DNA of 64,000 nucleotides from a virus: UHGV virus genome UHGV-0018629, one strand, 5' to 3'. The translations under genes were made by a program, and so were the position numbers. Positions 11,592 through 30,091 of the stretch are shown piece by piece. The notes beneath the pieces are model-generated. The model did no database searches and was not told where the DNA came from. It saw only the letters and a list, made by a program, of their open reading frames with translations. The number at the start of each line of letters is the position of its first letter. The first letter of the stretch is position 1.

Positions 11592-13243
<1,652 letters not shown>

Positions 13244-13244
<1 letters not shown>

Positions 13245-13486
13245 TGGAAGGTTTAATTGAAGCTATTAAATCAAACGACCTCGTAGCCGCTCGTAAATTA
13301 TTTGCTGAAGCCATGGCTGCAAGAACGACTGATTTAATTAAAGAAGAAAAAATCACTATCGCTCGTAATTTCTTAATCGAAGGTGAAGAACCTGATGACG
13401 AGGATGAAGATGACGACGAAGATAGCGATGATGATAAAGACGACAAAAAAGACAAAGACTCTGACGAAGACGAGGATGATGAATAA
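13244..13486 (+). CDS. 67: Prohead core protein gp67
   Basis: 80 aa, highly acidic Asp/Glu C-terminus, position between 20 and 68. Confidence 0.85.
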
Positions 13487-13911
13487 TGATTCTAATCCCT
13501 GAAACTCATGAATTAGTTCTCGAGAATGTCGAAGCACTTATTCCTGAAGCACAGGGTCGCTTTGACGAGTTGTCTTCTGCTTTAAATAAAGACGATATAA
13601 ATACAATTATCGAGAATATGCTTGATGATGAAACCGATTTAGCGATTGCATTAGCTTCTATTAATGAAAATATGCCGTTAAATGAATTCATCGTTAAACA
13701 TGTTTCTGCCCGTGGTGAAATTACTCGCACTAAAGATCGCAAAACCCGCGAACGTAATGCATTTCAAACTACCGGGTTGTCTAAAGCAAAACGTAGACAA
13801 ATTGCTCGTAAAGCTACCAAAACGAAGATTGCCAATCCAGCAGGTCAATCTCGTGCTCAGCGTAAGCGTAAAAAAGCTCTCAAACGCCGTAAAGCATTAG
13901 GATTAAGCTAA
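13486..13911 (+). CDS. 68: Prohead core protein gp68
   Basis: 141 aa, basic C-terminus, T4 order. Confidence 0.85.
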
Positions 13912-14549
13912 TGAATGAACCCCAATTGCTAATTGAAACTTGGGGTCAACCTGGCGAAATTATTGATGGTGTACCAATGCTTGAATCCCACGATGGGAAA
14001 GACTTAGGTTTAAAACCTGGTTTATACATCGAAGGAATATTCATGCAAGCAGAAGTCGTCAATAGAAATAAACGTCTTTATCCAAAACGTATATTAGAAA
14101 AAGCGGTAAAAGACTATATTAATGAGCAAGTTTTAACTAAACAAGCTCTCGGAGAATTAAATCATCCTCCACGCGCTAATGTTGACCCGATGCAAGCCGC
14201 TATCATTATAGAAGATATGTGGTGGAAAGGAAATGACGTATACGGACGAGCTCGTGTTATTGAAGGTGACCATGGTCCTGGAGATAAATTAGCAGCTAAT
14301 ATTCGTGCCGGATGGATTCCAGGAGTTTCTTCTCGTGGATTAGGTTCATTGACTGACACAAATAAAGGTTATCGTATCGTAAACGAAGGATTCAAATTAA
14401 CTGTAGGTGTTGATGCAGTATGGGGTCCAAGTGCTCCAGATGCATGGGTAACTCCTAAGGAAATTACCGAATCACAGACGGCGGAAGCCGATACAAGTGC
14501 CGATGACGCCTATATGGCTCTCGCAGAGGCCATGAAAAAAGCGTTATAA
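13911..14549 (+). CDS. 21: Prohead core protease gp21
   Basis: 212 aa, T4 order. Confidence 0.92.
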   Translation: MNEPQLLIETWGQPGEIIDGVPMLESHDGKDLGLKPGLYIEGIFMQAEVVNRNKRLYPKRILEKAVKDYINEQVLTKQALGELNHPPRANVDPMQAAIIIEDMWWKGNDVYGRARVIEGDHGPGDKLAANIRAGWIPGVSSRGLGSLTDTNKGYRIVNEGFKLTVGVDAVWGPSAPDAWVTPKEITESQTAEADTSADDAYMALAEAMKKAL

Positions 14550-14552
14550 ATA
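14545..14552 (+). promoter_or_regulatory. Late promoter box TATAAATA upstream of gene 22
   Basis: Exact TATAAATA overlapping the gp21 stop. Confidence 0.5.
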
Positions 14553-14579
14553 TTATTATCTAAACAACAGGACTACAAA

Positions 14580-15389
14580 ATGCTTAAAGAACAACTGATT
14601 GCCGAAGCGCAGAAAATTGATGCTTCCGTTGCTCTTGATAGTATTTTCGAATCAGTTAATATTTCTCCGGAAGCAAAAGAAACTTTCGGCACTGTATTCG
14701 AAGCTACCGTCAAGCAGCACGCCGTTAAATTAGCTGAATCTCATATCGCTAAAATTGCTGAAAAAGCAGAAGAAGAAGTAGAAAAAAATAAAGAAGAAGC
14801 CGAAGAAAAAGCTGAGAAGAAAATCGCTGAGCAAGCTTCTAAATTCATCGACCATCTTGCGAAAGAATGGCTCGCTGAAAATAAATTAGCAGTTGATAAA
14901 GGCATCAAAGCCGAACTGTTTGAATCCATGCTTGGTGGATTGAAAGAGCTCTTCGTTGAACACAACGTTGTTGTTCCAGAAGAATCAGTTGATGTTGTAG
15001 CTGAAATGGAAGAAGAACTGCAAGAACACAAAGAAGAATCAGCTCGTCTGTTCGAAGAACTCAATAAGCGTGACGCATATATTAATTATGTGCAGCGTGA
15101 AGTGGCATTGAGCGAAAGTACTAAAGATCTGACTGAGTCTCAAAAAGAAAAAGTCTCTGCTCTGGTCGAAGGTATGGATTATTCAGATGAATTCTCAAGT
15201 AAATTGAGTGCCATCGTAGAAATGGTGAAGAAGTCTAATAAAGATGAAAGCACTATTACTGAGGGTATAAATACTCCTGATACTGAAGCAGCCGGACTGA
15301 ATTTCGTCACTGAAGCTGTAGAAGATAAATCTGCACAAGGTGCAGAAGATATTGTAAGTGTATATGCGAAAGTCGCATCTCGTTTCTAA
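14580..15389 (+). CDS. 22: Prohead core scaffold protein gp22
   Basis: 269 aa, Glu/Lys-rich helical scaffold-like sequence. Confidence 0.9.
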   Translation: MLKEQLIAEAQKIDASVALDSIFESVNISPEAKETFGTVFEATVKQHAVKLAESHIAKIAEKAEEEVEKNKEEAEEKAEKKIAEQASKFIDHLAKEWLAENKLAVDKGIKAELFESMLGGLKELFVEHNVVVPEESVDVVAEMEEELQEHKEESARLFEELNKRDAYINYVQREVALSESTKDLTESQKEKVSALVEGMDYSDEFSSKLSAIVEMVKKSNKDESTITEGINTPDTEAAGLNFVTEAVEDKSAQGAEDIVSVYAKVASRF

Positions 15390-15407
15390 TTTTAAAGGTT
15401 AACACAA

Positions 15408-16973
15408 ATGACTATCAAAACTAAAGCTGAACTTTTGAACAAATGGAAGCCATTACTGGAAGGTGAAGGTTTACCGGAAATTGCTAATAGCAAACAAGCG
15501 ATTATCGCTAAAATCTTTGAAAACCAGGAAAAAGATTTCCAGACAGCTCCAGAATATAAAGACGAAAAAATCGCTCAGGCATTCGGTTCTTTCTTAACAG
15601 AAGCTGAAATCGGTGGTGACCACGGTTACAATGCTACTAACATCGCTGCTGGTCAGACTTCTGGCGCAGTAACTCAGATTGGCCCAGCTGTTATGGGTAT
15701 GGTACGTCGTGCTATTCCTAACCTGATTGCTTTCGATATTTGCGGTGTTCAGCCGATGAACAGCCCGACTGGCCAGGTATTCGCACTTCGCGCAGTATAT
15801 GGTAAAGACCCAATCGCTTCCGGTGCTAAAGAAGCATTCCACCCAATGTATGGTCCAGATGCAATGTTCTCTGGTCAGGGTGCTGCTAAGAAATTCGCTG
15901 CTTTGAAAGCGAGTGATACTCTTGAAGTTGGAACTATTTACACCCACTTCTTCCAGGAAACTGGTACTGTGTATCTGCAAGCTACAGAAGCTAAACAAAT
16001 TGATTCCGGTGCATCTGACGCAGCTAAATTAGATGCTGAAATTAAGAAACAAATGGAAGCTGGTGTACTGGTAGAAATCGCTGAAGGTATGGCTACTTCT
16101 ATCGCTGAACTTCAGGAAGGTTTCAACGGTTCTACCGATAACCCATGGAATGAAATGGGCTTCCGTATCGATAAACAAGTTATCGAAGCTAAATCTCGTC
16201 AGCTGAAAGCTGCTTACTCTATCGAATTAGCACAAGACCTCCGCGCCGTTCATGGTATGGATGCTGATGCTGAACTGTCTGGTATTCTGGCTACCGAAAT
16301 CATGCTGGAAATCAACCGTGAAGTTGTTGATTGGATTAACTACTCAGCTCAGGTTGGTAAATCTGGTATGACCCTGACTCCGGGTTCTAAAGCTGGTGTA
16401 TTTGACTTCCAGGATCCGATTGATATTCGTGGTGCTCGCTGGGCAGGTGAATCCTTTAAAGCTCTGTTGTTCCAGATTGACAAAGAAGCAGTTGAAATTG
16501 CTCGTCAAACCGGTCGTGGTGAAGGTAACTTCATTATCGCTTCCCGTAACGTAGTTAACGTTCTGGCTTCAGTTGATACTGGCATTTCTTATGCTGCGCA
16601 GGGTCTGGCTACTGGATTTAACACTGATACTACCAAGTCAGTATTTGCTGGTGTTCTGGGTGGTAAATACCGTGTATATATCGACCAGTATGCTAAACAA
16701 GATTATTTCACTGTAGGTTATAAAGGTCCGAACGAAATGGATGCTGGTATTTACTATGCTCCATATGTAGCTCTGACTCCGCTGCGTGGTTCTGATCCGA
16801 AGAACTTCCAACCAGTAATGGGATTCAAAACTCGTTACGGTATTGGTATCAACCCATTTGCAGAATCCGCTGCTCAGGCTCCGGCTTCTCGCATTCAGAG
16901 CGGTATGCCTTCTATTCTGAATAGCCTTGGTAAAAACGCTTACTTCCGCCGTGTATATGTTAAAGGTATCTAA
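15408..16973 (+). CDS. 23: Major capsid protein gp23
   Basis: 521 aa; N-terminus MTIKTKAELLNKWKPLLEGEG recognised as T4 gp23. Confidence 0.97.
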   Translation: MTIKTKAELLNKWKPLLEGEGLPEIANSKQAIIAKIFENQEKDFQTAPEYKDEKIAQAFGSFLTEAEIGGDHGYNATNIAAGQTSGAVTQIGPAVMGMVRRAIPNLIAFDICGVQPMNSPTGQVFALRAVYGKDPIASGAKEAFHPMYGPDAMFSGQGAAKKFAALKASDTLEVGTIYTHFFQETGTVYLQATEAKQIDSGASDAAKLDAEIKKQMEAGVLVEIAEGMATSIAELQEGFNGSTDNPWNEMGFRIDKQVIEAKSRQLKAAYSIELAQDLRAVHGMDADAELSGILATEIMLEINREVVDWINYSAQVGKSGMTLTPGSKAGVFDFQDPIDIRGARWAGESFKALLFQIDKEAVEIARQTGRGEGNFIIASRNVVNVLASVDTGISYAAQGLATGFNTDTTKSVFAGVLGGKYRVYIDQYAKQDYFTVGYKGPNEMDAGIYYAPYVALTPLRGSDPKNFQPVMGFKTRYGIGINPFAESAAQAPASRIQSGMPSILNSLGKNAYFRRVYVKGI

Positions 16974-16988
16974 TCTTTGACGATTTAA

Positions 16989-17004
16989 GGGACCTTCGGG
17001 TCCC
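16989..17004 (+). terminator. Stem-loop GGGACC-TTCG-GGTCCC downstream of gene 23
   Basis: Perfect hairpin with UUCG tetraloop. Confidence 0.6.
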
Positions 17005-17021
17005 TTTAGTTGTTTTTATGG

Positions 17022-17029
17022 TATAAATA
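17022..17029 (+). promoter_or_regulatory. Late promoter box TATAAATA upstream of gene 24
   Basis: Exact TATAAATA about 30 bp upstream of the gp24 ATG. Confidence 0.5.
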
Positions 17030-17056
17030 AATCATATAAACCAAAAGGAAAGCGCA

Positions 17057-18340
17057 ATGGCTAAAATCAACGAACTTCTGCGCGAATCAACCACAACGAA
17101 TAGCAACTCAATCGGTCGCCCAAATCTCGTTGCTTTGACTCGCGCTACCACTAAATTAATATATTCTGACATTGTAGCAACGCAAAGAACTAATCAACCT
17201 GTTGCTGCTTTTTATGGTATCAAATACCTTAACCCAGACAATGAATTTACATTTAAAACTGGTGCTACTTACGCTGGTGAAGCTGGGTATGTAGACCGAG
17301 AACAAATCACAGAATTAACAGAAGAGTCTAAATTAACTCTCAATAAAGGCGATTTATTCAAATATAATAATATCGTTTATAAAGTATTAGAAGATACACC
17401 ATTTGCTGATATTGAAGAAAGCGATTTAGAATTAGCTCTTCAGATTGCAATTGTTCTTTTAAAGGTTCGTCTATTTTCTGACGCAGCATCAACGAGCAAA
17501 TTTGAAAGCTCTGATAGCGAAATTGCGGATGCTAGGTTCCAGATTAATAAATGGCAAACCGCAGTTAAATCTCGTAAACTTAAAACTGGCATCACAGTTG
17601 AATTAGCACAAGATTTAGAAGCAAATGGATTCGATGCTCCTAATTTCTTGGAAGATTTGCTTGCAACTGAAATGGCGGATGAAATCAATAAAGATATTCT
17701 ACAGTCTTTGATTACGGTATCAAAACGCTATAAAGTTACAGGAATTACTGATACTGGATTCATTGATTTGAGTTATGCATCTGCACCTGAAGCTGGTCGT
17801 TCATTATACCGAATGGTATGTGAAATGGTTTCACATATCCAGAAAGAATCAACTTATACAGCAACGTTCTGTGTTGCTTCAGCTCGTGCCGCTGCGATTC
17901 TTGCTGCATCAGGTTGGTTAAAACATAAACCAGAAGATGACAAATATCTTTCACAAAATGCTTATGGATTTTTAGCTAATGGTTTACCGCTTTATTGTGA
18001 TACTAACAGCCCATTAGATTATGTAATCGTGGGTGTAGTAGAAAATATCGGTGAAAAAGAAATTGTTGGTTCAATTTTCTATGCTCCATACACAGAAGGT
18101 CTTGACTTAGATGACCCTGAACATGTTGGTGCATTTAAAGTTGTAGTTGATCCAGAAAGTTTGCAGCCATCTATCGGTTTATTAGTTAGATATGCTTTAT
18201 CTGCAAATCCTTACACTGTAGCAAAAGATGAAAAAGAAGCAAGAGTAATTGATGGTGGAGATATGGATAAAATGGCGGGTCGTTCAGATTTGTCTGTTTT
18301 ATTAGGTGTTAAGCTACCAAAAATTATCATTGATGAATAA
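17057..18340 (+). CDS. 24: Capsid vertex protein gp24
   Basis: 427 aa, same size as T4 gp24; follows gene 23 directly. Confidence 0.93.
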   Translation: MAKINELLRESTTTNSNSIGRPNLVALTRATTKLIYSDIVATQRTNQPVAAFYGIKYLNPDNEFTFKTGATYAGEAGYVDREQITELTEESKLTLNKGDLFKYNNIVYKVLEDTPFADIEESDLELALQIAIVLLKVRLFSDAASTSKFESSDSEIADARFQINKWQTAVKSRKLKTGITVELAQDLEANGFDAPNFLEDLLATEMADEINKDILQSLITVSKRYKVTGITDTGFIDLSYASAPEAGRSLYRMVCEMVSHIQKESTYTATFCVASARAAAILAASGWLKHKPEDDKYLSQNAYGFLANGLPLYCDTNSPLDYVIVGVVENIGEKEIVGSIFYAPYTEGLDLDDPEHVGAFKVVVDPESLQPSIGLLVRYALSANPYTVAKDEKEARVIDGGDMDKMAGRSDLSVLLGVKLPKIIIDE

Positions 18341-18344
18341 AACA

Positions 18345-18368
18345 AAGGGACCTTTCGGTCCCTTTTTA
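18345..18368. terminator. Bidirectional stem-loop GGGACC-TTTC-GGTCCC between convergent genes 24 and rnlB
   Basis: Hairpin flanked by A-run and T-run. Confidence 0.55.
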
Positions 18369-18369
18369 T

Positions 18370-19374
18370 TTAACTTACCAATTCAATCCAAGCCGGACGA
18401 AGTACATCTTGTACCGTTTTAACTAATTCCTTCTTAATCAAAGAAGGATTATCCGCTTGGGTTAGAGTAATACCTTCACGAGAAGTTTCTTCCAAAATAT
18501 CTTGAACAGTTAGTCCCATCACCTTTCCAAAATCTTTTGGACCAATTTCGCCAATTTTAGAAATAACGTTATTTACTCGGTTCAGTGTAACATAGCAAGC
18601 TAAAATTCCCATCAGTTTATTATCAGCTTCTGAGAGTTCAACTTTAGCTTTAATAGGCTTATCGGACTTTTTCTTTTCACTAAATTTAGAGTTCTTACAT
18701 TTAATTGCTACACGATTTCCATTATGAAGCCAAGAAGGATAGCAAGGTTTCAATACATATCCTTCAGCAGTAAATACTTCACCTTTGGCTTCGGCATTCC
18801 AAACGCATTTATTTGCATCAACTAATCCAGCATGGTCTACTGTAAAATTATAATCTTGGACGACAGAATCTAAATCATTTGGCAATTTAATAAGTTCTTC
18901 AAATTTACCGCGACCTAAAAGTGGAGCCATTTTAAATTTAAATGTATTGCAGAATGATTCCATCATATAATCATCGACATAAGTCACATCACCACTTTCT
19001 GTAGTAACAATAATGTCAAATACATAAAAATCTTTATCGCCATAATCGACATTCTTCTGAATGCCAGGTCCAGCGAATTCGCCAAAAACTTGATAAGATA
19101 CAACCGCTGAAGTTTCCATAATATCTTGTACTGCTTTAATGGAAGCATCGTAATTCTTTAGAATAATTTCATACCCAAAGAAATCTTCAGCAGGAAGAAT
19201 CGGTCCAGTGCGTTTAGCGCAAGTTACTTTATCACGCTCAATAATCAACGAAAAGTTTGTTCCATGAATCTTTTCACGAGCTACCCATTCGCCGCCAGTC
19301 AATCCCAAGCTATAAAGTTTTTCAATGAATTTAGAATTGTAATGATTTTCAAGACTGCTATACTTTTTAAACAT
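18370..19374 (-). CDS. rnlB: RNA ligase 2
   Basis: 334 aa; nucleotidyltransferase lysine motif context (EKIHGTN); size and position as T4 Rnl2. Confidence 0.93.
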
Positions 19375-19383
19375 AATTAATCC

Positions 19384-19662
19384 TCAAAATGTAATTTCTA
19401 ACCAATCACCATCACGCTGATCGCTATTGACTTTAAAGCTAAATCCTTCTTTTCTCAGCCAATCACCAATTTCTTCAGTAATCAATTTATCGCGAGCAGT
19501 ACAATAATAACTAAAATATGTTTTACCTTGTTCAGCTGCTTTATTAGCAAGTTCCGAAAAATCTTTAATAAAGCACTCTAGTTTAAATTGTTTACTTTTA
19601 AGTGCTTTTTCGCGTAATTGATTAGCAAAAGATTCATTTTCATAAAGATCATACTGTTTCAT
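19384..19662 (-). CDS. Hypothetical protein (T4 24.2-like by position)
   Basis: 92 aa ORF. Confidence 0.55.
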   Translation of the reverse strand: MKQYDLYENESFANQLREKALKSKQFKLECFIKDFSELANKAAEQGKTYFSYYCTARDKLITEEIGDWLRKEGFSFKVNSDQRDGDWLEITF

Positions 19663-19864
19663 TTTTCACCTTTTTATTAATATGTCTTTTTCTATAGACA
19701 ACTTTTTCTCGAGTTTCAAATCTATTCTTAGCAGTCATAGCTCGAGCCCATAATATAGCCACTTCCTTTGCCTGTAAGTTTAATTCACGAGCAATTTCAA
19801 TGAATGACTTTCCAGACTCATGAAGAGTAAACACCACAACCTCAGTTCTCATAATCAATCTCAT
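19649..19864 (-). CDS. Hypothetical small protein with possible helix-turn-helix (T4 24.3-like by position)
   Basis: 71 aa ORF; segment FIEIARELNLQAKEVAILWARA resembles an HTH. Confidence 0.5.
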   Translation of the reverse strand: MRLIMRTEVVVFTLHESGKSFIEIARELNLQAKEVAILWARAMTAKNRFETREKVVYRKRHINKKVKNETV

Positions 19865-19931
19865 GTTATCGAGTTGGTGCCATTATATACATCATTTTCT
19901 GATTATGTTTTGTGTGCTTTCAAAATGAAGA

Positions 19932-19947
19932 AAGGGGCCGAAGCCCC
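19932..19947 (-). terminator. Stem-loop AGGGGC-CGAA-GCCCCT downstream of hoc
   Basis: Perfect hairpin between hoc stop and upstream gene. Confidence 0.5.
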
Positions 19948-19953
19948 TTACGA

Positions 19954-21372
19954 TTATGGATAAGTATAGATGATACCAGTTTCTAAAGCAGTTTTATGAA
20001 TGATGTATCCATTACGTGATTCTTGAACATCAACTTCTGGATAGTCTTTCATCATCTTCTGAAGAGTGTAACGATGCAGGTAGTATTTACTATCTGGATC
20101 TTCAGTTTTCCAATCTTTACCTTCTTCGGTCATTTTTTGGATTTCATCCATAACCCACCAACCGCACCAGATGTAAGCTGAAGTACGATGTGGAAGAGGA
20201 TGGACATAAGGCAATTCACCTTCCGGTTCTGGAGCAACTTTATTAGTTACTTGAACTTGACCAGTCGCTTTAACTGTTTTACTATCATAGTCAGTTGCAG
20301 TAACAGTTGCAGTAACTTCAATAGTTTGACTTCCAATAGATGATGTATCAACTGTATACACATTAGTCGATCCTTCTACAGGAGAAGAATCTTTCTTCCA
20401 TGAATAAGTAATTTGCGCTGCTTCAGGTGCGCCAGTGACATTAGCTGTAAATGTAGCCAAAGCATCTTGCTGAACGTTAATAGAAGGAGGAGTCAATGTA
20501 ACCTGTGGATTCATTGTTTTCTTATTAACTGTTAATGATACTTCATTAGAAGTAACTTCCTTTTCATTATAATTTTCAGCAGTTACTTGCGCTACGCATT
20601 TAATTCTTTTTACTCCACTTGTAGTTGGAGTATAGTTAAATGTAGAGTTAGTTTCTCCACCAACTTGAGAATCATCTACATACCATTTATATGTAGCAGA
20701 CGCTCCATCAGGTTGAGAAGCTAAGGCAGCAGTAAATTGAACTGGGGTTCCAATTACTCCAGCTGAAGGACTAGCAGGAGTTACTGCCAATGTAGTTGTC
20801 TGTGTCTTTTTATTAACAGTCAGTGACACTTCATTAGAAGTAACTTCCTTTGCATCATAATTTGTCGCGGTTACTTGAGCTACACACTTAATTGTTTTAA
20901 CTCCGCTTGTAGAAGGAGTGTAATTGAATGTAGCAGAAGTCGCTTCGTCTACAGGAGAACCGTCAACGTACCATTGATACGTAGCAGATGCACCTGATGG
21001 CTGCGAAGCTAAAGCAGCGGTAAATTTAACAGCTGTTCCAATTACTCCTGCTGGAGGACTATTGGGAGTTACGGCTAAGGTAGTCGTCTGAGTTTTATTT
21101 TTGACTGTGATAGTTGTACTAATTTCAGCTGTTTCAGCTTCAGATTCTGGAACTGTGTTTGTTGCAACTACTTTAATAGTCTTTTGACCGGCAGGTCCTT
21201 TTAATACATAACTAAAAGTTGCTTCAGCTCCATCTTGTGGAACATCATCTACACTCCAAGCATATGTAATAGTTCCACCTCCAGTTTCACCACTGGGTGC
21301 AGCAGTAAACTGCTGAGTCTGATCTATAACTCCAGTAGGTGTTTTAGGAGTTATATCAACTGTAAAAGCCAT
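19954..21372 (-). CDS. hoc: Highly immunogenic outer capsid protein Hoc, with an extra tandem Ig-like domain
   Basis: 472 aa; N-terminus MAFTVDITPKTPTGV and C-terminal capsid-binding region; internal in-frame duplication of about 96 aa. Confidence 0.9.
   Translation of the reverse strand: MAFTVDITPKTPTGVIDQTQQFTAAPSGETGGGTITYAWSVDDVPQDGAEATFSYVLKGPAGQKTIKVVATNTVPESEAETAEISTTITVKNKTQTTTLAVTPNSPPAGVIGTAVKFTAALASQPSGASATYQWYVDGSPVDEATSATFNYTPSTSGVKTIKCVAQVTATNYDAKEVTSNEVSLTVNKKTQTTTLAVTPASPSAGVIGTPVQFTAALASQPDGASATYKWYVDDSQVGGETNSTFNYTPTTSGVKRIKCVAQVTAENYNEKEVTSNEVSLTVNKKTMNPQVTLTPPSINVQQDALATFTANVTGAPEAAQITYSWKKDSSPVEGSTNVYTVDTSSIGSQTIEVTATVTATDYDSKTVKATGQVQVTNKVAPEPEGELPYVHPLPHRTSAYIWCGWWVMDEIQKMTEEGKDWKTEDPDSKYYLHRYTLQKMMKDYPEVDVQESRNGYIIHKTALETGIIYTYP
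20515..21090. repeat. Tandem direct repeat (two ~288-bp units, roughly 80% identical) inside hoc encoding duplicated Ig-like domains
   Basis: Two adjacent units with long shared runs (e.g. cttcattagaagtaacttcct) read in sequence. Confidence 0.7.
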
Positions 21373-21381
21373 AAGTTATCC

Positions 21382-22062
21382 TTATTTTAATGTTACGAAA
21401 GAAGAATTACGTGTTTCACGAATTAGAACTGATCCGTCGCGATTAATGTAATAAATTAAGCTAAATAAAGTTTGGTGTGCCGACGCGTGTTCAAAACTAG
21501 TTGGATGAGATTTCCAATCCGGAGTTTCAGCGATCCATTGATAAATCCACCAAGGAACCGTACAGAATCCTGGATTTTTCCCCAATAATTGAAGATTCGG
21601 GCTAAAGTTTTCCGGAAGAGTAAATACAGACGGCTTTTCAGATTCAATAATCTCAGCTACAGCCTGTTCGAATTTTTCTTCAACAAAAGGAGTATCTTCA
21701 ATCAAAACATCGGTATTTTCAGGAATTTTATCCGTTTCTACTACGTCAATTTTAATGTCAGATTTAACAGGAGAATCAATCAGAAGTGCTGCCTCTGGAT
21801 TGACTTCTTCATCGTCATATTTTAATCCGTCTGCGGCATCAGCAGCATCAATTAAGTCTTTAATAGATAACCCATCAGTCTCTGGCATAGGTTCACTAGC
21901 GAGCTTCTGGAGGGCTTCTTCAATATCATTAACGATATTATCAAAAGATTTATTCTTTTTGACCTTTATACCAAACTGTTCAGCATATTCAGCTAATTTA
22001 GCTTTAGCTTCTTTATTATCATCAAGAGCCTTCAGCTCTGCAATATAATCTTTATCTATCAT
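21382..22062 (-). CDS. inh: Inhibitor of prohead protease
   Basis: 226 aa, size and position as T4 Inh. Confidence 0.8.
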   Translation of the reverse strand: MIDKDYIAELKALDDNKEAKAKLAEYAEQFGIKVKKNKSFDNIVNDIEEALQKLASEPMPETDGLSIKDLIDAADAADGLKYDDEEVNPEAALLIDSPVKSDIKIDVVETDKIPENTDVLIEDTPFVEEKFEQAVAEIIESEKPSVFTLPENFSPNLQLLGKNPGFCTVPWWIYQWIAETPDWKSHPTSFEHASAHQTLFSLIYYINRDGSVLIRETRNSSFVTLK

Positions 22063-22075
22063 AATATTTCCTCAG

Positions 22076-22083
22076 TATAAATA
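22076..22083 (+). promoter_or_regulatory. Late promoter box TATAAATA upstream of uvsW
   Basis: Exact TATAAATA about 30 bp upstream of the uvsW ATG. Confidence 0.45.
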
Positions 22084-22112
22084 TAGATATATTTATTACA
22101 TGGTATTTAGAC

Positions 22113-23624
22113 ATGACTGACATTAAAGTACATTTTTATGATTTTAGTCACGTGAGAATTGATTGTGAAGAAAGTACATTTCATGAACTCCGTGATTTCT
22201 TTAGCTTTGAAGCTGATGGGTATCGTTTTAATCCTCGCTTCAGATACGGCAACTGGGATGGACGAATCCGTCTTTTAGATTATAATCGCCTTCTTCCATT
22301 CGGCTTGGTCGGGCAAATTAAAAAGTTCTGTGATAACTTTGGCTATAAAGCCTGGATTGACCCGCAAATTAACGAAAAAGAAGAATTATCAAGAAAAGAT
22401 TTTGATGAATGGCTTTCTAAATTAGAAATCTATTCAGGAAATAAAAGAATTGAACCGCATTGGTATCAAAAAGATGCAGTGTTCGAAGGATTAGTTAATC
22501 GTCGTAGAATTCTTAATCTTCCAACATCCGCAGGTAAATCTTTAATTCAAGCTTTGCTTGCTCGGTATTATTTGGAAAATTATGAAGGCAAAATTCTTAT
22601 CATTGTTCCAACAACTGCTCTGACAACTCAGATGGCTGATGACTTTGTTGACTATCGTTTATTCAGTCATGCAATGATAAAGAAAATCGGCGGTGGAGCA
22701 TCAAAAGACGATAAATATAAAAATGATGCACCAGTCGTTGTTGGTACATGGCAAACTGTAGTAAAACAACCAAAAGAATGGTTCTCACAGTTTGGAATGA
22801 TGATGAATGATGAATGCCATCTTGCTACAGGAAAAAGTATTTCATCTATCATATCAGGTTTAAATAACTGCATGTTCAAATTTGGTTTGTCTGGTTCATT
22901 ACGCGATGGCAAAGCCAATATCATGCAATATGTTGGAATGTTTGGTGAAATATTTAAGCCAGTAACGACTTCTAAATTAATGGAAGATGGACAAGTAACT
23001 GAGCTAAAAATTAATAGTATTTTTCTTCGCTATCCTGATGAGTTCACTACTAAATTAAAGGGAAAAACTTACCAAGAAGAAATAAAAATTATCACTGGGC
23101 TCAGTAAAAGAAATAAATGGATCGCTAAATTAGCTATTAAGCTTGCGCAAAAAGATGAAAACGCTTTTGTCATGTTTAAACACGTATCGCACGGTAAAGC
23201 TATTTTCGATTTAATTAAAGATGAATACGATAAAGTTTATTACGTATCAGGGGAAGTTGATACCGAAACTCGCAATATAATGAAAACCTTAGCTGAAAAC
23301 GGTAAAGGAATAATTATAGTAGCTAGTTATGGTGTATTTTCTACTGGCATTTCAGTTAAAAATCTGCATCACGTTGTTTTAGCGCACGGTGTTAAATCAA
23401 AAATCATTGTATTACAAACAATCGGTCGTGTATTGCGTAAGCATGGTTCTAAGACAGTAGCAACAGTCTGGGACCTCATAGATGACGCAGGCGTCAAGCC
23501 AAAATCTGCTAATACGAAAAAGAAATACGTTCATTTGAACTATCTTTTAAAACACGGTATTGATCGTATTCAGCGCTACGCAGATGAAAAATTTAATTAC
23601 GTAATGAAAACAGTTAATTTATAA
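22113..23624 (+). CDS. uvsW: UvsW DNA/RNA helicase (SF2)
   Basis: 503 aa; Walker A PTSAGKS, DEAD-like box NDECH. Confidence 0.93.
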   Translation: MTDIKVHFYDFSHVRIDCEESTFHELRDFFSFEADGYRFNPRFRYGNWDGRIRLLDYNRLLPFGLVGQIKKFCDNFGYKAWIDPQINEKEELSRKDFDEWLSKLEIYSGNKRIEPHWYQKDAVFEGLVNRRRILNLPTSAGKSLIQALLARYYLENYEGKILIIVPTTALTTQMADDFVDYRLFSHAMIKKIGGGASKDDKYKNDAPVVVGTWQTVVKQPKEWFSQFGMMMNDECHLATGKSISSIISGLNNCMFKFGLSGSLRDGKANIMQYVGMFGEIFKPVTTSKLMEDGQVTELKINSIFLRYPDEFTTKLKGKTYQEEIKIITGLSKRNKWIAKLAIKLAQKDENAFVMFKHVSHGKAIFDLIKDEYDKVYYVSGEVDTETRNIMKTLAENGKGIIIVASYGVFSTGISVKNLHHVVLAHGVKSKIIVLQTIGRVLRKHGSKTVATVWDLIDDAGVKPKSANTKKKYVHLNYLLKHGIDRIQRYADEKFNYVMKTVNL

Positions 23625-23637
23625 GGGCTTCGGCCCT

Positions 23638-23883
23638 TTGGAGAAAAAGATGTTACTAGAATTTAAACAATTTCTTTATGAAGCTTCTATTGATGAATTT
23701 ATGGGTAAAATTGCCTCTTGCCAAACGATAGAAGGTCTAGAAGAACTTGAAGCTTATTATAAGAAAAGAGTCAAAGAAACTGAATTAAAAGATACTGATG
23801 ACATCTCTGTGAGAGATGCTTTGGCAGGAAAAAGAGCTGAATTAGAAGATTCAGACGATGATGAAGTAGAAGAAAGCTTTTAA
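23638..23883 (+). CDS. uvsW.1: UvsW.1 small acidic protein
   Basis: 81 aa ORF directly after uvsW. Confidence 0.7.
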   Translation: MEKKMLLEFKQFLYEASIDEFMGKIASCQTIEGLEELEAYYKKRVKETELKDTDDISVRDALAGKRAELEDSDDDEVEESF

Positions 23884-23944
23884 ATTAAAAAAGGCCCAAC
23901 CAAAAAGGAAGGGCCAAAACTATAGACTAAAGGTCACACTCACA

Positions 23945-24112
23945 CTATAGCAAAAGTTGTGTTTCATTTAATTGTTCTTCCGAACTTTCTGAAACTGGCA
24001 GTTCTTTAATGTAATTATAACAAGGCCCAGGATGTACAGGACCTCTGTCTGTTTCAACAACCAATGCAGAATCGATTGGAGTTTTACAGACAACACAAAT
24101 CTTATCTGACAT
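23945..24112 (-). CDS. Small Cys-containing hypothetical protein (T4 uvsY.-2-like); not in the supplied ORF track, under 60 aa
   Basis: My own translation: MSDKICVVCKTPIDSALVVETDRGPVHPGPCYNYIKELPVSESSEEQLNETQLLL (55 aa). Confidence 0.45.
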   Translation of the reverse strand: MSDKICVVCKTPIDSALVVETDRGPVHPGPCYNYIKELPVSESSEEQLNETQLLL

Positions 24113-24140
24113 GATTGTCTCCTCTAAATTATATATCTAT

Positions 24141-24365
24141 TTATATAACTCTCATATGCATATCAATGCCCATATCTTTAGAATAAAAATATTCATCAAG
24201 ATATCCGGCAAATTTTCCTTTAATATAAAGTACATCTTCACCGCATGGGTGGTCGGCCAGGATACGAATATCCTGACGCTTGAGATTATACTTTTTCATT
24301 AAGAATTGAATTTCCGTTTCGAATTCTTCTTCATAATTAAAAGCATCATCAATGCTATATTTCAT
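24141..24365 (-). CDS. Hypothetical protein (T4 uvsY.-1-like)
   Basis: 74 aa, ATGA-type overlap with uvsY stop. Confidence 0.65.
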   Translation of the reverse strand: MKYSIDDAFNYEEEFETEIQFLMKKYNLKRQDIRILADHPCGEDVLYIKGKFAGYLDEYFYSKDMGIDMHMRVI

Positions 24366-24778
24366 TATTTTCCAGCCTCAAATGCTCGCATGTCTTGAAT
24401 ATGCTTAATAGCAAATCCGCGTGATTTAATAGCATCAAGAGCTCCGCTACAGAAATCCAATAAAATTCCCCAATATTGTAATGAAGTATCAACTTTTAAA
24501 ACATCCTTATCAGCTGATAGAACTGTCTTCATTTCTGATTTCTCATAACGGTCCATACTAAATTCATCACCATCTCCTCGTCCCGAGTAGTAGTCTAATT
24601 TAGCTTTAAGAGCAACTTTTTTCTGTGCTTCAATTCTAAGCATTTCCTTTTTAATACTTGAATGCTTATTGAGCCATTTACTATATAACATCACATTATT
24701 AGCTGCTTCATACTGTAATTTAGTTGAATCTATAAACACATCTTTCTTCAATTCTTCTTGAAGATCTTCTAATCTCAT
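24365..24778 (-). CDS. uvsY: Recombination mediator UvsY
   Basis: 137 aa, same size as T4 UvsY. Confidence 0.9.
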   Translation of the reverse strand: MRLEDLQEELKKDVFIDSTKLQYEAANNVMLYSKWLNKHSSIKKEMLRIEAQKKVALKAKLDYYSGRGDGDEFSMDRYEKSEMKTVLSADKDVLKVDTSLQYWGILLDFCSGALDAIKSRGFAIKHIQDMRAFEAGK

Positions 24779-24844
24779 ATTGTTCTCTATTCAATTGTTA
24801 TTGGATGGACTTAGATTCATTATACCACGTTTATACGTGAAGCA

Positions 24845-25243
24845 TTATACTCTATTACTGGAAGCCAGTTGCAGTTTTATCTGCTCAATATCATCAGGGT
24901 TATCGATGACTGAAAAGCGTATTTCTACTATCAGAGTATAATCATCATAAACAGGTATTACATTAACTGCTAATTTATCAATACGTGGCTCGTAGTTTCT
25001 TACTGCGCTTTCAATGTTACGCTCAACCGTGTCAGCGGTAAGAGGAGTCATATTCTCAAAAAGCTGATCAGATAAATCGCATCCAAATTCTGAGTCAAAT
25101 GGCCTTGACCCTTTTCTGGTTGTAATAATTCCTAAAAGGCTATTTTTAATTGACCTTAATCCAAGAGATCTGGAAACGTCTTTGTTCCAATCCATTTTCA
25201 TTTCTGGGTCGATGTCAGAATAAAGCTTATTAATATTTGCCAT
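24845..25243 (-). CDS. 25: Baseplate wedge protein gp25
   Basis: 132 aa; N-terminus [19 protein letters not shown]. Confidence 0.92.
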   Translation of the reverse strand: MANINKLYSDIDPEMKMDWNKDVSRSLGLRSIKNSLLGIITTRKGSRPFDSEFGCDLSDQLFENMTPLTADTVERNIESAVRNYEPRIDKLAVNVIPVYDDYTLIVEIRFSVIDNPDDIEQIKLQLASSNRV

Positions 25244-25869
25244 TACAATAGCTCAAAGAATTCTTTGAGTCCTCTTATTACATGAGCGTGAGTTTTTCCA
25301 CACTCTGGACACTTAATTGGAACAGCCAAATAAACAGTAGGCTTTAAAAGCATATCTTTTATAGCTACAATATCTGACTCTGTGATGATAGAATATAAAT
25401 CTTCCAGTTCTTTTTCATTTAAGTCTTCAACTGGAATGCTTTCACCGTTAGCATGAATCGTTTCTATACATGATACTATCATGTGGGCTATATTTTTATC
25501 ATCAAAAATTTTAGGGTAATGGAACTTAATTTTAATGTCACCCAGTGTATACCAGAGGTCTTCTGGTGCATCTATTTGTGTATGTAATAGATTTATATGG
25601 GTTGGTATTTCAGTTCCACAGGTGCACTTCCAGGAGTTTTCGTGATTAACTTCTCCAAGAGAATGCGCCCATAAATGAATCAGTAATAGTTCTGATTCTT
25701 GGCGGTTTAAATCTTTTGCATTCGTGCAGTCTTTAATTAGCTTTTTAACAATTTCTTCTACGGAACCATTATTTTTGGCAGTAATAAGTTCTAGATATTC
25801 TTTAAGAGTAAATGCGCGACAATTGATTATTTTAGAACCAACTCTCACGTCAAATTTATATTCATACAT
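25243..25869 (-). CDS. 26: Baseplate hub protein gp26
   Basis: 208 aa, T4 order. Confidence 0.88.
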
Positions 25870-25894
25870 ATTTAGCTCCTTTATTTATCATATT

Positions 25895-25902
25895 TATAAA
25901 TA
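25895..25902 (+). promoter_or_regulatory. Late promoter box TATAAATA in the divergent 26/51 intergenic region
   Basis: TATAAATA within the palindrome-like tatttataaata. Confidence 0.4.
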
Positions 25903-25919
25903 GAATAAAAGGAGCATCT

Positions 25920-26672
25920 ATGGCAAACATTATTCGTTGTAAATTACCAGATGGTGTTCATCGTTTTAAACCATTTACGGTAGAAGATTATCGAGATTTT
26001 TTGTTAGTTCGAAACGATATAGAACATCGGTCACCACAAGAACAAAAAGAAGTAATTGCTGATTTAATTGCTGATTATTTTGGAGACTATCCAAAGACTT
26101 GGCAACCATTTATATTTTTGCAGGTATTTGTAGGGTCAATAGGTAAAACTAAAGTACCGGTCACATTTGTATGTCCAAAATGTAAAAAAGAAAAGACAGT
26201 TCCATTTGAAATATATCAAAAAGAATTAAAGGAACCCATTTTTGATGTAGCTAATGTTAAAATTAAATTAAAGTTTCCTTCTGGGTTTTATGAAAATAAA
26301 GCAAAGATGATTACTGAAAATATTCATTCTGTTCAAGTAGATGAAACATGGTATGATTGGAAGGAAATTAGTGAATCGAGTCAAATAGAACTTGTTGACG
26401 CCATCGAGATAGAAACATTAGAAAAAATTCTCGATGCAATGAATCCTATTAATTTAACATTACACATGTCATGCTGTGATAAGTACATTAAAAAATACAC
26501 TGATATAGTAGATGTGTTTAAGCTATTAGTTAATCCAGATGAGATATTTACTTTTTATCAAATTAATCACACGCTTGTAAAAAGTAATTATAGCTTAAAT
26601 TCAATAATGAAAATGATTCCTGCCGAGCGCGGATTCGTATTAAAACTGATTGAGAAGGATAAACATCAATGA
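25920..26672 (+). CDS. 51: Baseplate hub assembly protein gp51
   Basis: 250 aa, T4 order. Confidence 0.88.
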
Positions 26673-27841
26673 GTATGTTACAACGCCCTGGATATCCAAA
26701 TCTCAGCGTTAAATTATTTGAGAGTTATGACGCTTGGAGTAATAATAGATTTGTTGAATTAGCTGCTACTATTACCACATTAACTATGCGTGACTCTCTT
26801 TATGGTCGAAATGAAGGAATGCTACAATTTTATGATTCTAAAAACATTCATACAAAAATGGATGGAAATGAAATAATTCAGATTTCTGTGGCTAATGCAA
26901 ACGATATTAATAATGTTAAAACACGAATTTATGGATGTAAGCATTTTTCTGTATCAGTAGATTCAAAAGGCGATAACATCATTGCCATTGAATTGGGAAC
27001 TATTCATTCTATAGAAAATCTTAAATTTGGTAGACCATTTTTCCCTGATGCAGGTGAATCTATAAAAGAAATGCTTGGCGTCATTTATCAAGATCGTACA
27101 TTATTAACCCCAGCGATAAATGCTATTAATGCTTATGTTCCTGATATTCCGTGGACTAGCACATTTGAAAACTATTTGTCATATGTAAGAGAAGTTGCTC
27201 TAGCGGTAGGAAGCGATAAGTTCGTATTTGTATGGCAAGACATCATGGGAGTTAACATGATGGACTATGATATGATGATAAATCAAGAACCATATCCAAT
27301 GATTGTAGGTGAGCCAACTTTAATAGGTCAATTCGTCCAAGAATTAAAATATCCATTAGCATATGATTTTGTTTGGTTGACTAAATCAAACCCGCATAAA
27401 CGTGATCCAATGAAAAATGCTACTATCTATGCTCATTCATTTTTAGATTCTTCATTACCAATGATTACTACAGGAAAGGGTGAAAACTCTATTGTAGTGT
27501 CAAGGTCAGGTGCTTATTCTGAAATGACTTATAGAAATGGATATGAAGAAGCTATTCGTCTTCAGACTATGGCGCAGTATGATGGTTACGCTAAATGTTC
27601 TACTGTCGGTAATTTTAACTTGACTCCTGGCGTTAAAATTATTTTTAATGATAGTAAAAACCAATTTAAAACAGAATTTTACGTTGATGAAGTTATTCAC
27701 GAATTATCAAATAATAATTCCGTAACTCATCTTTATATGTTCACTAATGCAACGAAACTGGAAACAATCGACCCAGTTAAGGTTAAAAATGAATTTAAAA
27801 CTGATACTACCACTGAAGAAAGTAGTTCTTCCGATAAGTAA
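26669..27841 (+). CDS. 27: Baseplate hub protein gp27
   Basis: 390 aa, T4 order. Confidence 0.93.
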
Positions 27842-28322
27842 TAAAGAAGTTTCTATTCCTAAGATGGGTCTTAAACATTATAACATTTTAAAAGATGTTA
27901 AAGGTCCTGATGAAAATTTAAAACTTCTTATTGATTCTATTTGTCCGAATTTATCACCAGCAGAAGTTGATTTCGTTTCCATTCATTTATTGGAATTTAA
28001 TGGAAAGATTAAATCCCGTAAAGAAATAGATGGTTATACTTATGACATTAATGATGTTTATGTGTGCCAAAGATTAGAATTTCAATACCAAGGAAATACA
28101 TTTTATTTTAGACCTCCTGGAAAATTTGAACAATTTTTAACTGTAAGCGATATGTTATCCAAATGCTTGCTTAAGGTCAATGATGAAGTTAAAGAAATTA
28201 ATTTTCTTGAGATGCCAGCATTCGTTTTAAAATGGGCAAATGATATTTCTACAACTTTAGCAATTCCTGGCCCTAATGGTCCAATAACTGGAATTGGCAA
28301 TATTATTGGATTATTTGAATGA
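27789..28322 (+). CDS. 28: Baseplate hub distal protein gp28
   Basis: ORF 27747..28322; likely start at MNLKLILPL (27789) giving 177 aa; overlaps gp27 3' end. Confidence 0.85.
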
Positions 28323-30091
28323 AAAAGCCACAAGAAATGCAAACGATGCGTAGAAAAGTCATTTCAGATAATAAACCAACACAGGAAGCGGCTAAAACCG
28401 CTTCTAATACTTTATCTGGTCTTAATGACATTTCTACAAAATTAGATGATGCTCAAGCTGCTTCTGAATTAATAGCTCAGACTGTTGAAGAAAAATCAAA
28501 TGAAATAGTTGGAGCAATTGATAACGTTGAAAGCGCAGTAAGTGATACTACTGCCGGTTCTGAGTTAATTGCTGAAACTGTCGAAATTGGCAACAATATT
28601 AATAAAGAAATCGGTGAATCGCTCGGAAGTAAATTAGATAAATTGACAAGTTTACTGGAGCAAAAAATTCAGACAGCTGGAATTCAGCAGACTGGAACGA
28701 GTTTAGCAGTAGTCGAAAGCGCTATTCCTGTTAAGGTGGTTGAGGATGATACAGCTGAATTTGTTGGTCCTTTATTACCGGCTCCTGAAGCAGTTAATAA
28801 CAACCCAGATGCTGATTTTTTCCCTACTCCTCAGCCAGTTGAACCAAAACAAGAGTCTCCAGAAGAGAAGCAAAAAAGAGACGCATTTAACTTAAAAATA
28901 TCTAATGCATTAGATAAATTAACAAAGACAGTTGATTTTGGATTTAAGAAATCTATTTCAATTACTGATAAAATATCTAGCATGCTATTTAAGTATACCG
29001 TCAGTGCTGCTATTGAAGCTGCTAAAATGGTTGCATTGATAATGGCTGTTGTTATTGGAATAGACCTGCTGATGGTTCATTTTAAATACTGGTCAGATAA
29101 ATTTTCAAAAGCCTGGGATTTATTTAGCACTGATTTTAAAACTTTCTCAAGCGAAACAGGAACTTGGGGTCCTTTATTACAAAGCATCTTTGAATCTATT
29201 GATGAAATTAAAAAGTTCTGGGAAGCTGGAGATTGGGGCGGATTAACAGTAGCTATTGTTGAAGGGCTTGGAAGTGTTCTTTATAATTTAGGAGAGCTTA
29301 TTCAATTAGGTATGGCTAAATTATCTGCAGCAATTCTTCGAGTCATTCCTGGCATGAAGGATACTGCTGATGAAGTAGAAGGAAGAGCATTAGAAAATTT
29401 CCAAAATTCTACTGGAGCGTCTCTTAATAAAGAAGACCAAGAAAAAGTAGCAAATTATCAAGATAAACGAATGAATGACGATCTTGGCCCAATAGCAAAA
29501 GGATTAGACAAAATTGCGAACTGGAAAACTCGTGCATCTAACTGGATTCGTGGTGTAGATAATAAAGAAGCATTGACTACTGACGAAGAACGTGCAGCAG
29601 AAGAAGAAAAATTAAAACAACTTTCACCGGAAGAAAGAAAAAATGCTTTAATGAAAGCTAATGAAGCTCGTGCTGCGATGATTCGTTTTGAAAAATACGC
29701 TGATTCAGCTGATATGAGCAAAGACTCGACAGTTAAATCAATTGAAGCTGCTCATGAAGACCTTAAAAAACGGATGGATGACCCGGATTTAAATAATTCA
29801 CCGGCAGTTAAAAAAGAACTTGCTGCTAGATTTTCTAAAATTGATGCTACTTATCAAGAGCTCAAGAAAAATCAGCCTAATGCCAAACCTGAAACTTCTG
29901 CTAAATCACCAGAAGCAAAACAGGTCCAGGTGATTGAAAAGAACAAAGCACAACAAGCTCCTGTTCAACAAGCATCTCCTTCAATCAATAATACTAATAA
30001 TGTTATTAAGAAAAATACTGTCGTTCATAATATGACACCCGTAACGAGCACAACGGCTCCTGGTATATTTGATGCGACTGGAGTTAATTAA
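28319..30091 (+). CDS. 29: Baseplate hub / tail length determinant gp29
   Basis: 590 aa, T4 order. Confidence 0.92.
   Translation: MKKPQEMQTMRRKVISDNKPTQEAAKTASNTLSGLNDISTKLDDAQAASELIAQTVEEKSNEIVGAIDNVESAVSDTTAGSELIAETVEIGNNINKEIGESLGSKLDKLTSLLEQKIQTAGIQQTGTSLAVVESAIPVKVVEDDTAEFVGPLLPAPEAVNNNPDADFFPTPQPVEPKQESPEEKQKRDAFNLKISNALDKLTKTVDFGFKKSISITDKISSMLFKYTVSAAIEAAKMVALIMAVVIGIDLLMVHFKYWSDKFSKAWDLFSTDFKTFSSETGTWGPLLQSIFESIDEIKKFWEAGDWGGLTVAIVEGLGSVLYNLGELIQLGMAKLSAAILRVIPGMKDTADEVEGRALENFQNSTGASLNKEDQEKVANYQDKRMNDDLGPIAKGLDKIANWKTRASNWIRGVDNKEALTTDEERAAEEEKLKQLSPEERKNALMKANEARAAMIRFEKYADSADMSKDSTVKSIEAAHEDLKKRMDDPDLNNSPAVKKELAARFSKIDATYQELKKNQPNAKPETSAKSPEAKQVQVIEKNKAQQAPVQQASPSINNTNNVIKKNTVVHNMTPVTSTTAPGIFDATGVN

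Follow-up and report, generated by a model that had tools for sequence, protein, structure and literature searches.

Hoc is the highly immunogenic outer capsid protein that forms a decoration fiber on the phage head and mediates adherence to mucus; in T4 the fiber measures 180 Å. Variation in the number of its Ig-like domains has already been published. Fokine et al. 2023 (PMC10385173) report one to ten Ig-like domains and a conserved capsid-binding domain among 650 Hoc homologs, with ten in Serratia phage Muldoon, and a T4-like Hoc variant that has only two Ig domains and binds MUC2 via Domain 2 is the subject of Fu et al. 2024 (PMC11853027). In a literature search, no paper was found that treats the 472-aa allele with two units of the domain-2 type as such, or the pattern of unit classes A, B, and C described below.

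The gene analyzed here lies in a 64,000-nucleotide stretch of viral DNA (UHGV-0018629), referred to as the window. We read it as an intact and functional Tequatrovirus hoc of the common A-B form, in which two old, diverged Ig paralogs of the domain-2 type are placed between domains 1 and 3, and we put the probability of this reading at about 0.9. An earlier note on the same DNA had presented the repeat as a recent duplication and an adaptation hotspot. The feature is real and functional, and it is also ordinary and known.

The hoc gene and its surroundings

The whole window belongs to a Tequatrovirus (T4-like) genome; Shigella phage Sf21, SfPhi01, wV7, and many others share ~97% identity with positions 12000 to 30000. 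The gene and its immediate signals are as follows.

19954..21372, minus strand: hoc coding sequence, an ORF of 472 aa plus stop codon, protein start MAFTVDITPKTP
21379..21383, minus strand: Shine-Dalgarno-like AAGGA, read from the sequence, 6 nt 5' of the hoc ATG and overlapping the inh stop codon
19932..19949, minus strand: GC-rich intrinsic-terminator-like hairpin AAGGGGCTTCGGCCCCTT followed by a T-rich tail, found by scan a few bases past the hoc stop codon

The 472-aa ORF is hoc. It is matched by PHROG phrog_1149, "Hoc-like head decoration" (E = 1.6e-139), and by T4 Hoc in a sequence search (PDB 5vf3_Z, 376 aa, E = 5e-218), so that both protein lengths given in the earlier note hold. The Pfam PKD family exceeds its curated cut-off (E = 4e-11) and Ig_2 does so marginally (27.4 against a cut-off of 27), while Ig_3 and I-set fall slightly under theirs at aa 289-374. 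The computed pI of 4.82 is acidic, as published for Hoc (about 4-5, PMC10385173). The gene sits between inh and 24.3/24.2/rnlB, near uvsW, in a T4-like position within the late head-gene region, and the order rnlB, 24.2, 24.3, hoc, inh, uvsW is that of the T4 annotation.

The record of phage G28 annotates a terminator at the place equivalent to the hairpin that follows hoc. The T4 late-promoter motif TATAAATA is absent from the minus strand between 19001 and 23000; a late-promoter-like copy of TATAAATA occurs on the plus strand at 22076..22083, inside the spacer between inh and uvsW. This spacer (22063-22112) is only 50 nt long, which shows that segE, the homing endonuclease gene found there in T4, is missing from the window. 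Rfam, tRNA, and window-wide tandem-repeat scans gave nothing further tied to the hoc locus.

The best nucleotide identity of hoc in the database is 94.2%, against ~97% for the surrounding 18 kb. The exact protein is found on three public contigs (Logan and ENA; two sources), the longest of 166,101 bp.

Domain organization and structure model

The protein consists of four Ig-like domains and a capsid-binding domain, where T4 Hoc has three and one. From the N-terminus, the domains are encoded as follows.

21097..21372, minus strand: Ig-like domain 1, aa 1-92; β-sandwich at aa 1-91 with block pLDDT 83-94; the unit HMM scores it weakly, at 36.6 bits
20809..21096, minus strand: repeat unit 1, class A, aa 93-188; the module that T4 is without, falling in protein cluster "A"
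20521..20808, minus strand: repeat unit 2, class B, aa 189-284; ortholog of T4 Hoc domain 2
20233..20520, minus strand: Ig-like domain 3 (T4 numbering), aa 285-380; β-sandwich at aa 285-376 with pLDDT around 87-93
19957..20232, minus strand: C-terminal capsid-binding domain, aa 381-472; contact residues conserved

The AlphaFold2 model, calculated from a 30-sequence alignment, has a mean pLDDT of 84 and features four β-sandwich modules at aa 1-91, 93-187, 189-283, and 285-376, with block pLDDT of 83-96. The predicted strands of unit 2 repeat those of unit 1 exactly 96 residues further on. The C-terminal domain beyond the Ig modules is helix-rich and has a pLDDT of 42-67, a low confidence that reflects an alignment of only 30 close sequences. 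Foldseek identifies four-Ig fragments of Dscam1, Sidekick, and ICAM-5 as the best matches in the PDB, a result used solely as support for a run of four consecutive Ig domains. Hoc structures are not at the top of this list because a flexible five-domain fiber superimposed as a whole chain yields low TM-scores. Among viral proteins, a 568-aa Hoc (BFVD model A0A653G060) matches best, with 74% identity.

T4 Hoc (376 aa; PDB 5VF3, 8T1X, and others; model of Fokine et al. 2023, PMC10385173) matches two segments of the window protein, aa 1-103 and aa 189-472, and hence has exactly one unit fewer: three Ig modules instead of four, the extra segment being aa 93-188 with the class-A unit. The T4 alignment and the unit HMM thus confirm that the additional 96 aa are one more Ig-like module, in tandem and in frame. 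A count of five displayed domains against four, as previously proposed, is correct if the capsid-binding domain is included; strictly, four are displayed against three in T4, since the fifth domain sits on the capsid. Structure prediction, which the note had suggested for counting Ig domains, gives the four β-sandwich modules listed above.

The two tandem units

Tandem Repeats Finder places a single array at 20515..21090, with 2.0 copies of a period of 288, 79% matches, and a score of 719; it is the sole tandem repeat with a score of at least 100 in the 64-kb window. A repeat search recovers the copies 20515-20802 and 20803-21090 at 78% identity. Taken in frame, the units share 223 of 288 nucleotides (77%) and 78 of 96 residues (81%), far beyond chance, as shuffled controls reach 26% ± 2.5% with a maximum of 37% (2000 shuffles). 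Two adjacent units of ~288 bp and roughly 80% identity had been described before, and this stands; to call the modules near-identical overstates the case, with 65 of 288 bases and 18 of 96 residues differing. The junction between the units reads NEVSLTVNK|KTQTTTLAVTP. The longest identical run that the copies share is only 24 nt, so the array should be fairly stable.

The capsid-binding domain

All 16 T4 residues that were checked (Y293, H295, H299, R300, Y304, W306, W309, W310, D313, Q354, and E355-Y360 in T4 numbering) are identical in the window protein, each at its T4 number plus 96. The list of T4 Hoc residues in contact with gp23, including the E355-S-R-N-G359 loop, is taken from PMC10385173. 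Both phrog_21694 and phrog_1149 match the C-terminus, and the domain is near-invariant over 30 homologs, with dN of 0-0.02. By analogy with T4, the protein would bind the center of the gp23 hexamer via this domain.

The conservation extends beyond the genus. The last ~270 nt of hoc (19954-20230) are 96-97.5% identical to RB69 (NC_004928.1, 112612-112881), DalCa, and PTE-Eco15, phages in which the Ig part of hoc finds no match at the megablast level. These alignments point to a sharp conservation or recombination boundary at the Ig/C-terminal junction of hoc, spanning genera.

Comparison with other Hoc proteins

The Hoc of phage RB27 (YP_009102382.1, 472 aa) agrees with the window protein in length, A-B architecture, junction, and position relative to inh and 24.3; with its 472 aa, A followed by B, and the same junction, the window gene is an A-B allele of the RB27 type. 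The same features are shared by the 472-aa Hocs of the Tequatrovirus phages G28, ECO4, BF15, slur04, HP3, PST, phiD1, and several phages of the BASEL collection. Differences from these proteins are allelic only, with protein identity of up to 96% (BF15); at the nucleotide level, where the best identity is the 94.2% given above, different domains have different nearest relatives.

Longer proteins add to the same plan. The 568/570-aa Hocs (Escherichia phages UGKSEcP1 and UGKSEcP2; A0A653G060) have A and B as their first two units, as in the window, and differ in a third unit, usually of class C, for a total of five Ig modules. The long Hoc-like proteins of other Straboviridae, such as that of Serratia phage Muldoon (1174 aa, 10 Ig domains), again combine an Ig string with the conserved capsid-binding domain, but with far more modules, distant sequences, and unit classes that are not orthologous to those described here.

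Module number also varies downwards. The Hocs of phage F2 (280 aa, MN864145) and phage PNJ-9 (about 283 aa, PMC11853027) share the family and the C-terminal domain with the window protein; the former has no domain-2-type unit and the latter is described as being without domain 3. In F2 (MN864145.1; 1501-2343 of the extracted region), domain 1 is joined to domain 3 through TITVNKKTMNP. The NK order at this junction is that of a unit end and not of domain 1, which suggests a linker deletion by recombination.

Distribution and unit architectures

Megablast places hoc in 659 phage records, 597 of which cover at least 80% of the gene, though coverage is unable to separate one-unit from two-unit genes, since the pieces merge into one place. 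A 60-nt query centered on the unit-to-unit junction was therefore used at E ≤ 1e-12, a setting in which half-matches cannot score. Of about 600 hoc-bearing records (the 597 with at least 80% coverage), 221 contain the junction, or about a third; these counts include GenBank/RefSeq duplicates. RB27, the Yersinia phages PST and phiD1, HP3, slur04, and several BASEL-collection phages are among them. RB27 is already cited as a relative in the 2018 record of phage G28, and the record of phage moskry annotates a repeat_region within hoc.

Tequatrovirus Hoc lengths form a series of 280, 376, 472, and 568 aa that corresponds to 0-3 units, and these units belong to at least three old classes. The unit HMM finds three Ig modules in every 376-aa Hoc, four in every 472-aa Hoc, and five in every 568-570-aa Hoc. 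Among the best 120 of 893 protein matches, clustered at 90% identity, 81 clusters measure 376-379 aa, 30 measure 468-472 aa, and nine measure 567-570 aa. Clustering of 170 units from 121 proteins yields class A with 85 units, class B with 62, and class C with 20, arranged as follows.

A: 39 clusters
B: 31 clusters
C: 11 clusters
A-B (window type): 23 clusters
A-A: 3 clusters
A-C: 3 clusters
B-C: 1 cluster
A-B-C: 3 clusters
A-B-A: 2 clusters
A-A-C: 2 clusters
A-B-B: 1 cluster

The window architecture is the commonest two-unit form. In this 121-protein sample, 38 of the 39 multi-unit proteins have A as their first unit, and the B-A order is found in none of the clusters, against 23 for A-B. Two further proteins of the sample contain heterologous units. 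One 567-aa Hoc, representing a cluster of 24 members, has a class-A first unit, then two heterologous Ig modules about 52% and 42% identical to A/B units, and the same conserved C-terminal domain. To judge from such sequences, the domain-2 slot can evidently take foreign modules.

We also considered whether single-unit Hocs are A/B chimeras, using five diagnostic columns, and rejected these columns as unreliable because column 22 is polymorphic within class A; unit clustering and nucleotide dS superseded them.

Divergence of the units

Synonymous and non-synonymous divergence was calculated by the Nei-Gojobori method. Units 1 and 2 of the window differ with a dS of 1.14, close to saturation and readable only as "old," and a dN of 0.114 (dN/dS = 0.10). 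Third codon positions hold 42 of the 65 base differences; 36 codons differ only synonymously and 18 non-synonymously. Both units are held under purifying selection. With synonymous sites near saturation, the split of the units is old.

Nucleotide comparison of the units across 10 phages (the window, T4, F2, G28, Sf21, ime09, RB27, PST, UGKSEcP2, and moskry) gives the following dS values.

First units (class A) among themselves: 0.06-0.79
Window unit 1 and unit 1 of other phages: 0.06-0.55; window unit 1 and their class B second units: 1.01-1.17
Class B units among themselves: 0.14-0.57
Second units of G28, PST, RB27, Sf21, moskry, and the window: 0.14-0.45
First and second units, within or between genomes: about 0.8-1.35
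T4 single unit and second units (class B): 0.19-0.33
T4 single unit and first units (class A): 0.70-0.96
Flanking domains D1, D3, and Ct, window and other phages: 0.09-0.51

Among these phages, the closest units to those of the window are in G28, with dS of 0.06 for unit 1 and 0.14 for unit 2. Both units have orthologs at the corresponding position in hundreds of phages. Unit 2 of the window lies at 0.25 from the T4 unit and at 0.14-0.23 from unit 2 of G28, RB27, Sf21, and PST, and HMMER aligns T4 residues 93-188 to it. The single unit of T4 is thus the ortholog of unit 2, and the unit that T4 is without is unit 1. The last units of ime09 and UGKSEcP2 represent a third class, with a dS of 0.15 to each other. 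By the dS values listed above, the split of the units predates the spread of the flanking parts of present hoc alleles. The comparison of the 10 phages gives no sign of gene conversion between adjacent units. The gene is mosaic at the scale of domains, with window unit 1 nearest to G28 and D3 nearest to RB27.

Origin of the array

Homologous recombination is very active in T4-type phages and occurs at high frequency. The array would have arisen once, by unequal in-register recombination in the ancestor of the present Tequatrovirus hoc alleles, and its units would later have been lost, gained, and swapped as T4-type phages recombined, with crossovers favored in the conserved unit ends and linkers. 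A single old event of this kind is the most likely origin because the A-B order is near-universal and B-A never appears in the sample. As to the direction of change, single-unit forms such as that of T4 may be either ancestral or deletion derivatives; they occur with an A-, B-, or C-type unit, which fits both views alike.

The proposal of the earlier note, a recent and lineage-specific tandem duplication of domain 2 as part of ongoing adaptation, is highly improbable. It draws on a repeat that is real, tandem, and in frame, and on a gene more divergent than its surroundings (94.2% against about 97%), but a recent duplicate would be near-identical at synonymous sites, where these copies show a dS of 1.14 under a dN/dS of 0.10. 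Moreover, both copies have closer positional orthologs elsewhere, the G28 units for example, and their junction is common to the 221 phage records. Still more improbable is that an assembly artefact made the second unit, whether through a collapsed or expanded repeat or through a chimera of two co-occurring hoc alleles. Assemblers do have difficulty with tandem repeats of 288 bp, and the RefSeq entry of phage KNP5 has a 990-N gap in the same part of hoc; yet copies that differ at 23% of their bases are easy to assemble apart, and this divergence together with the 221 records, many of them from cultured isolates, makes such an error very unlikely. The intact reading frame and the identical protein on three contigs from two sources speak against it as well. 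T4, with its one unit in 376 aa, does not share the length or the repeat. The claim of novelty falls on other grounds than these: the allele is a common and old two-unit form, its exact protein already public, and not an adaptation private to this phage.

A different origin for the A-B array deserves more attention, although we regard it as doubtful: two single-unit alleles, one A-type and one B-type and already diverged, would have been joined by unequal recombination in a mixed infection, in which case single-unit forms, including that of T4, would be ancestral. Single-unit A, B, and C Hocs do occur in comparable numbers (39, 31, and 11 clusters), and an A-B dS of about 1, above that of the flanking domains (up to 0.5), is expected for old alleles on recombining backgrounds; the domain-scale mosaicism of Hoc, with unit 1 and D3 nearest to different phages, also fits. 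However, in-register crossover deletion near the unit ends would leave "pure" single units too. The strong order bias (A-B 23, B-A 0; A first in 38 of 39) indicates one or very few founding events but does not separate the two origins.

A broader proposal can be made tentatively. The domain-2 slot may be a cassette array of 0-3 units from at least three ancient classes in largely fixed order, its architectures held as a balanced polymorphism that tunes fiber length, mucin- or glycan-binding surfaces, or antibody evasion, with unit divergence guarding the arrays against recombinational collapse. We found no paper on such a population-level cassette pattern; what is published is the variation of Ig number across distant homologs and one deletion variant.

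Mucin binding and fiber length

In the Hoc of PNJ-9, the MUC2 (fucose)-binding residues S183, L184, and T185 lie in the Domain 2 stretch N180-T185 (PMC11853027). This stretch, NEVSLT, occurs twice in the window protein.

20818..20835, minus strand: first NEVSLT motif, in the final strand of unit 1 (aa 180-185), read from the sequence
20530..20547, minus strand: second NEVSLT motif, in the final strand of unit 2 (aa 276-281), read from the sequence

By analogy, the window protein would display in duplicate the domain-2 surface for which binding to fucosylated MUC2 is reported, and its fiber would project about one Ig domain (roughly 45 Å) beyond the 180 Å of T4. With two such surfaces, reach and valency should change and no new function is expected. 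Domain 3 has also been connected with binding: the substitution D246N is credited with altering mucin-glycan binding (Chin et al. 2022, as cited in PMC11853027).

Because Hoc adheres to mucus and domain 2 is reported to bind MUC2, phages with two or three domain-2 units may persist on mucosa differently from T4. The natural 0-, 1-, 2-, and 3-unit alleles form a ready series for studying the effects of fiber length and valency on mucus adherence, antigen display, and phage therapy. The 376-aa Hoc of T4 should not be taken as the standard of the genus. As a discovery the window allele carries little weight, being present in hundreds of deposited genomes.

Observations on deposited records

Several database entries for hoc call for care. 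A longer hoc in Shigella phage KNP5 (2072-bp span) was rejected as an additional array form, as its extra length is an assembly gap of 990 N within the repeat region and is uninformative on copy number. In the RefSeq entry (NC_055713.1) the N run replaces the expected hoc units at 1730-2720 of the extracted hoc region, and the annotation "Hoc-like head decoration" covers only the 3' 588 bp. In Yersinia phage PST (KF208315.1; 763-2182 of the extracted region) a frameshift within the first dozen codons interrupts hoc near the 5' end, and only a truncated CDS is annotated; either the sequence contains an error or the gene is a real pseudogene. The 32-kb record MG010123.1, "Staphylococcus phage SAJK-IND," contains the Tequatrovirus hoc unit junction at 19507-19566 with 90% identity and is probably mislabeled or contaminated. 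Finally, many Hocs identical or near-identical to that of the window carry a bacterial label in the databases, for example "endonuclease [Shigella sonnei]" or "PKD domain-containing protein [Escherichia coli]"; these proteins lie on contigs of ~166-170 kb, which are whole T4-like phage genomes within bacterial assemblies.
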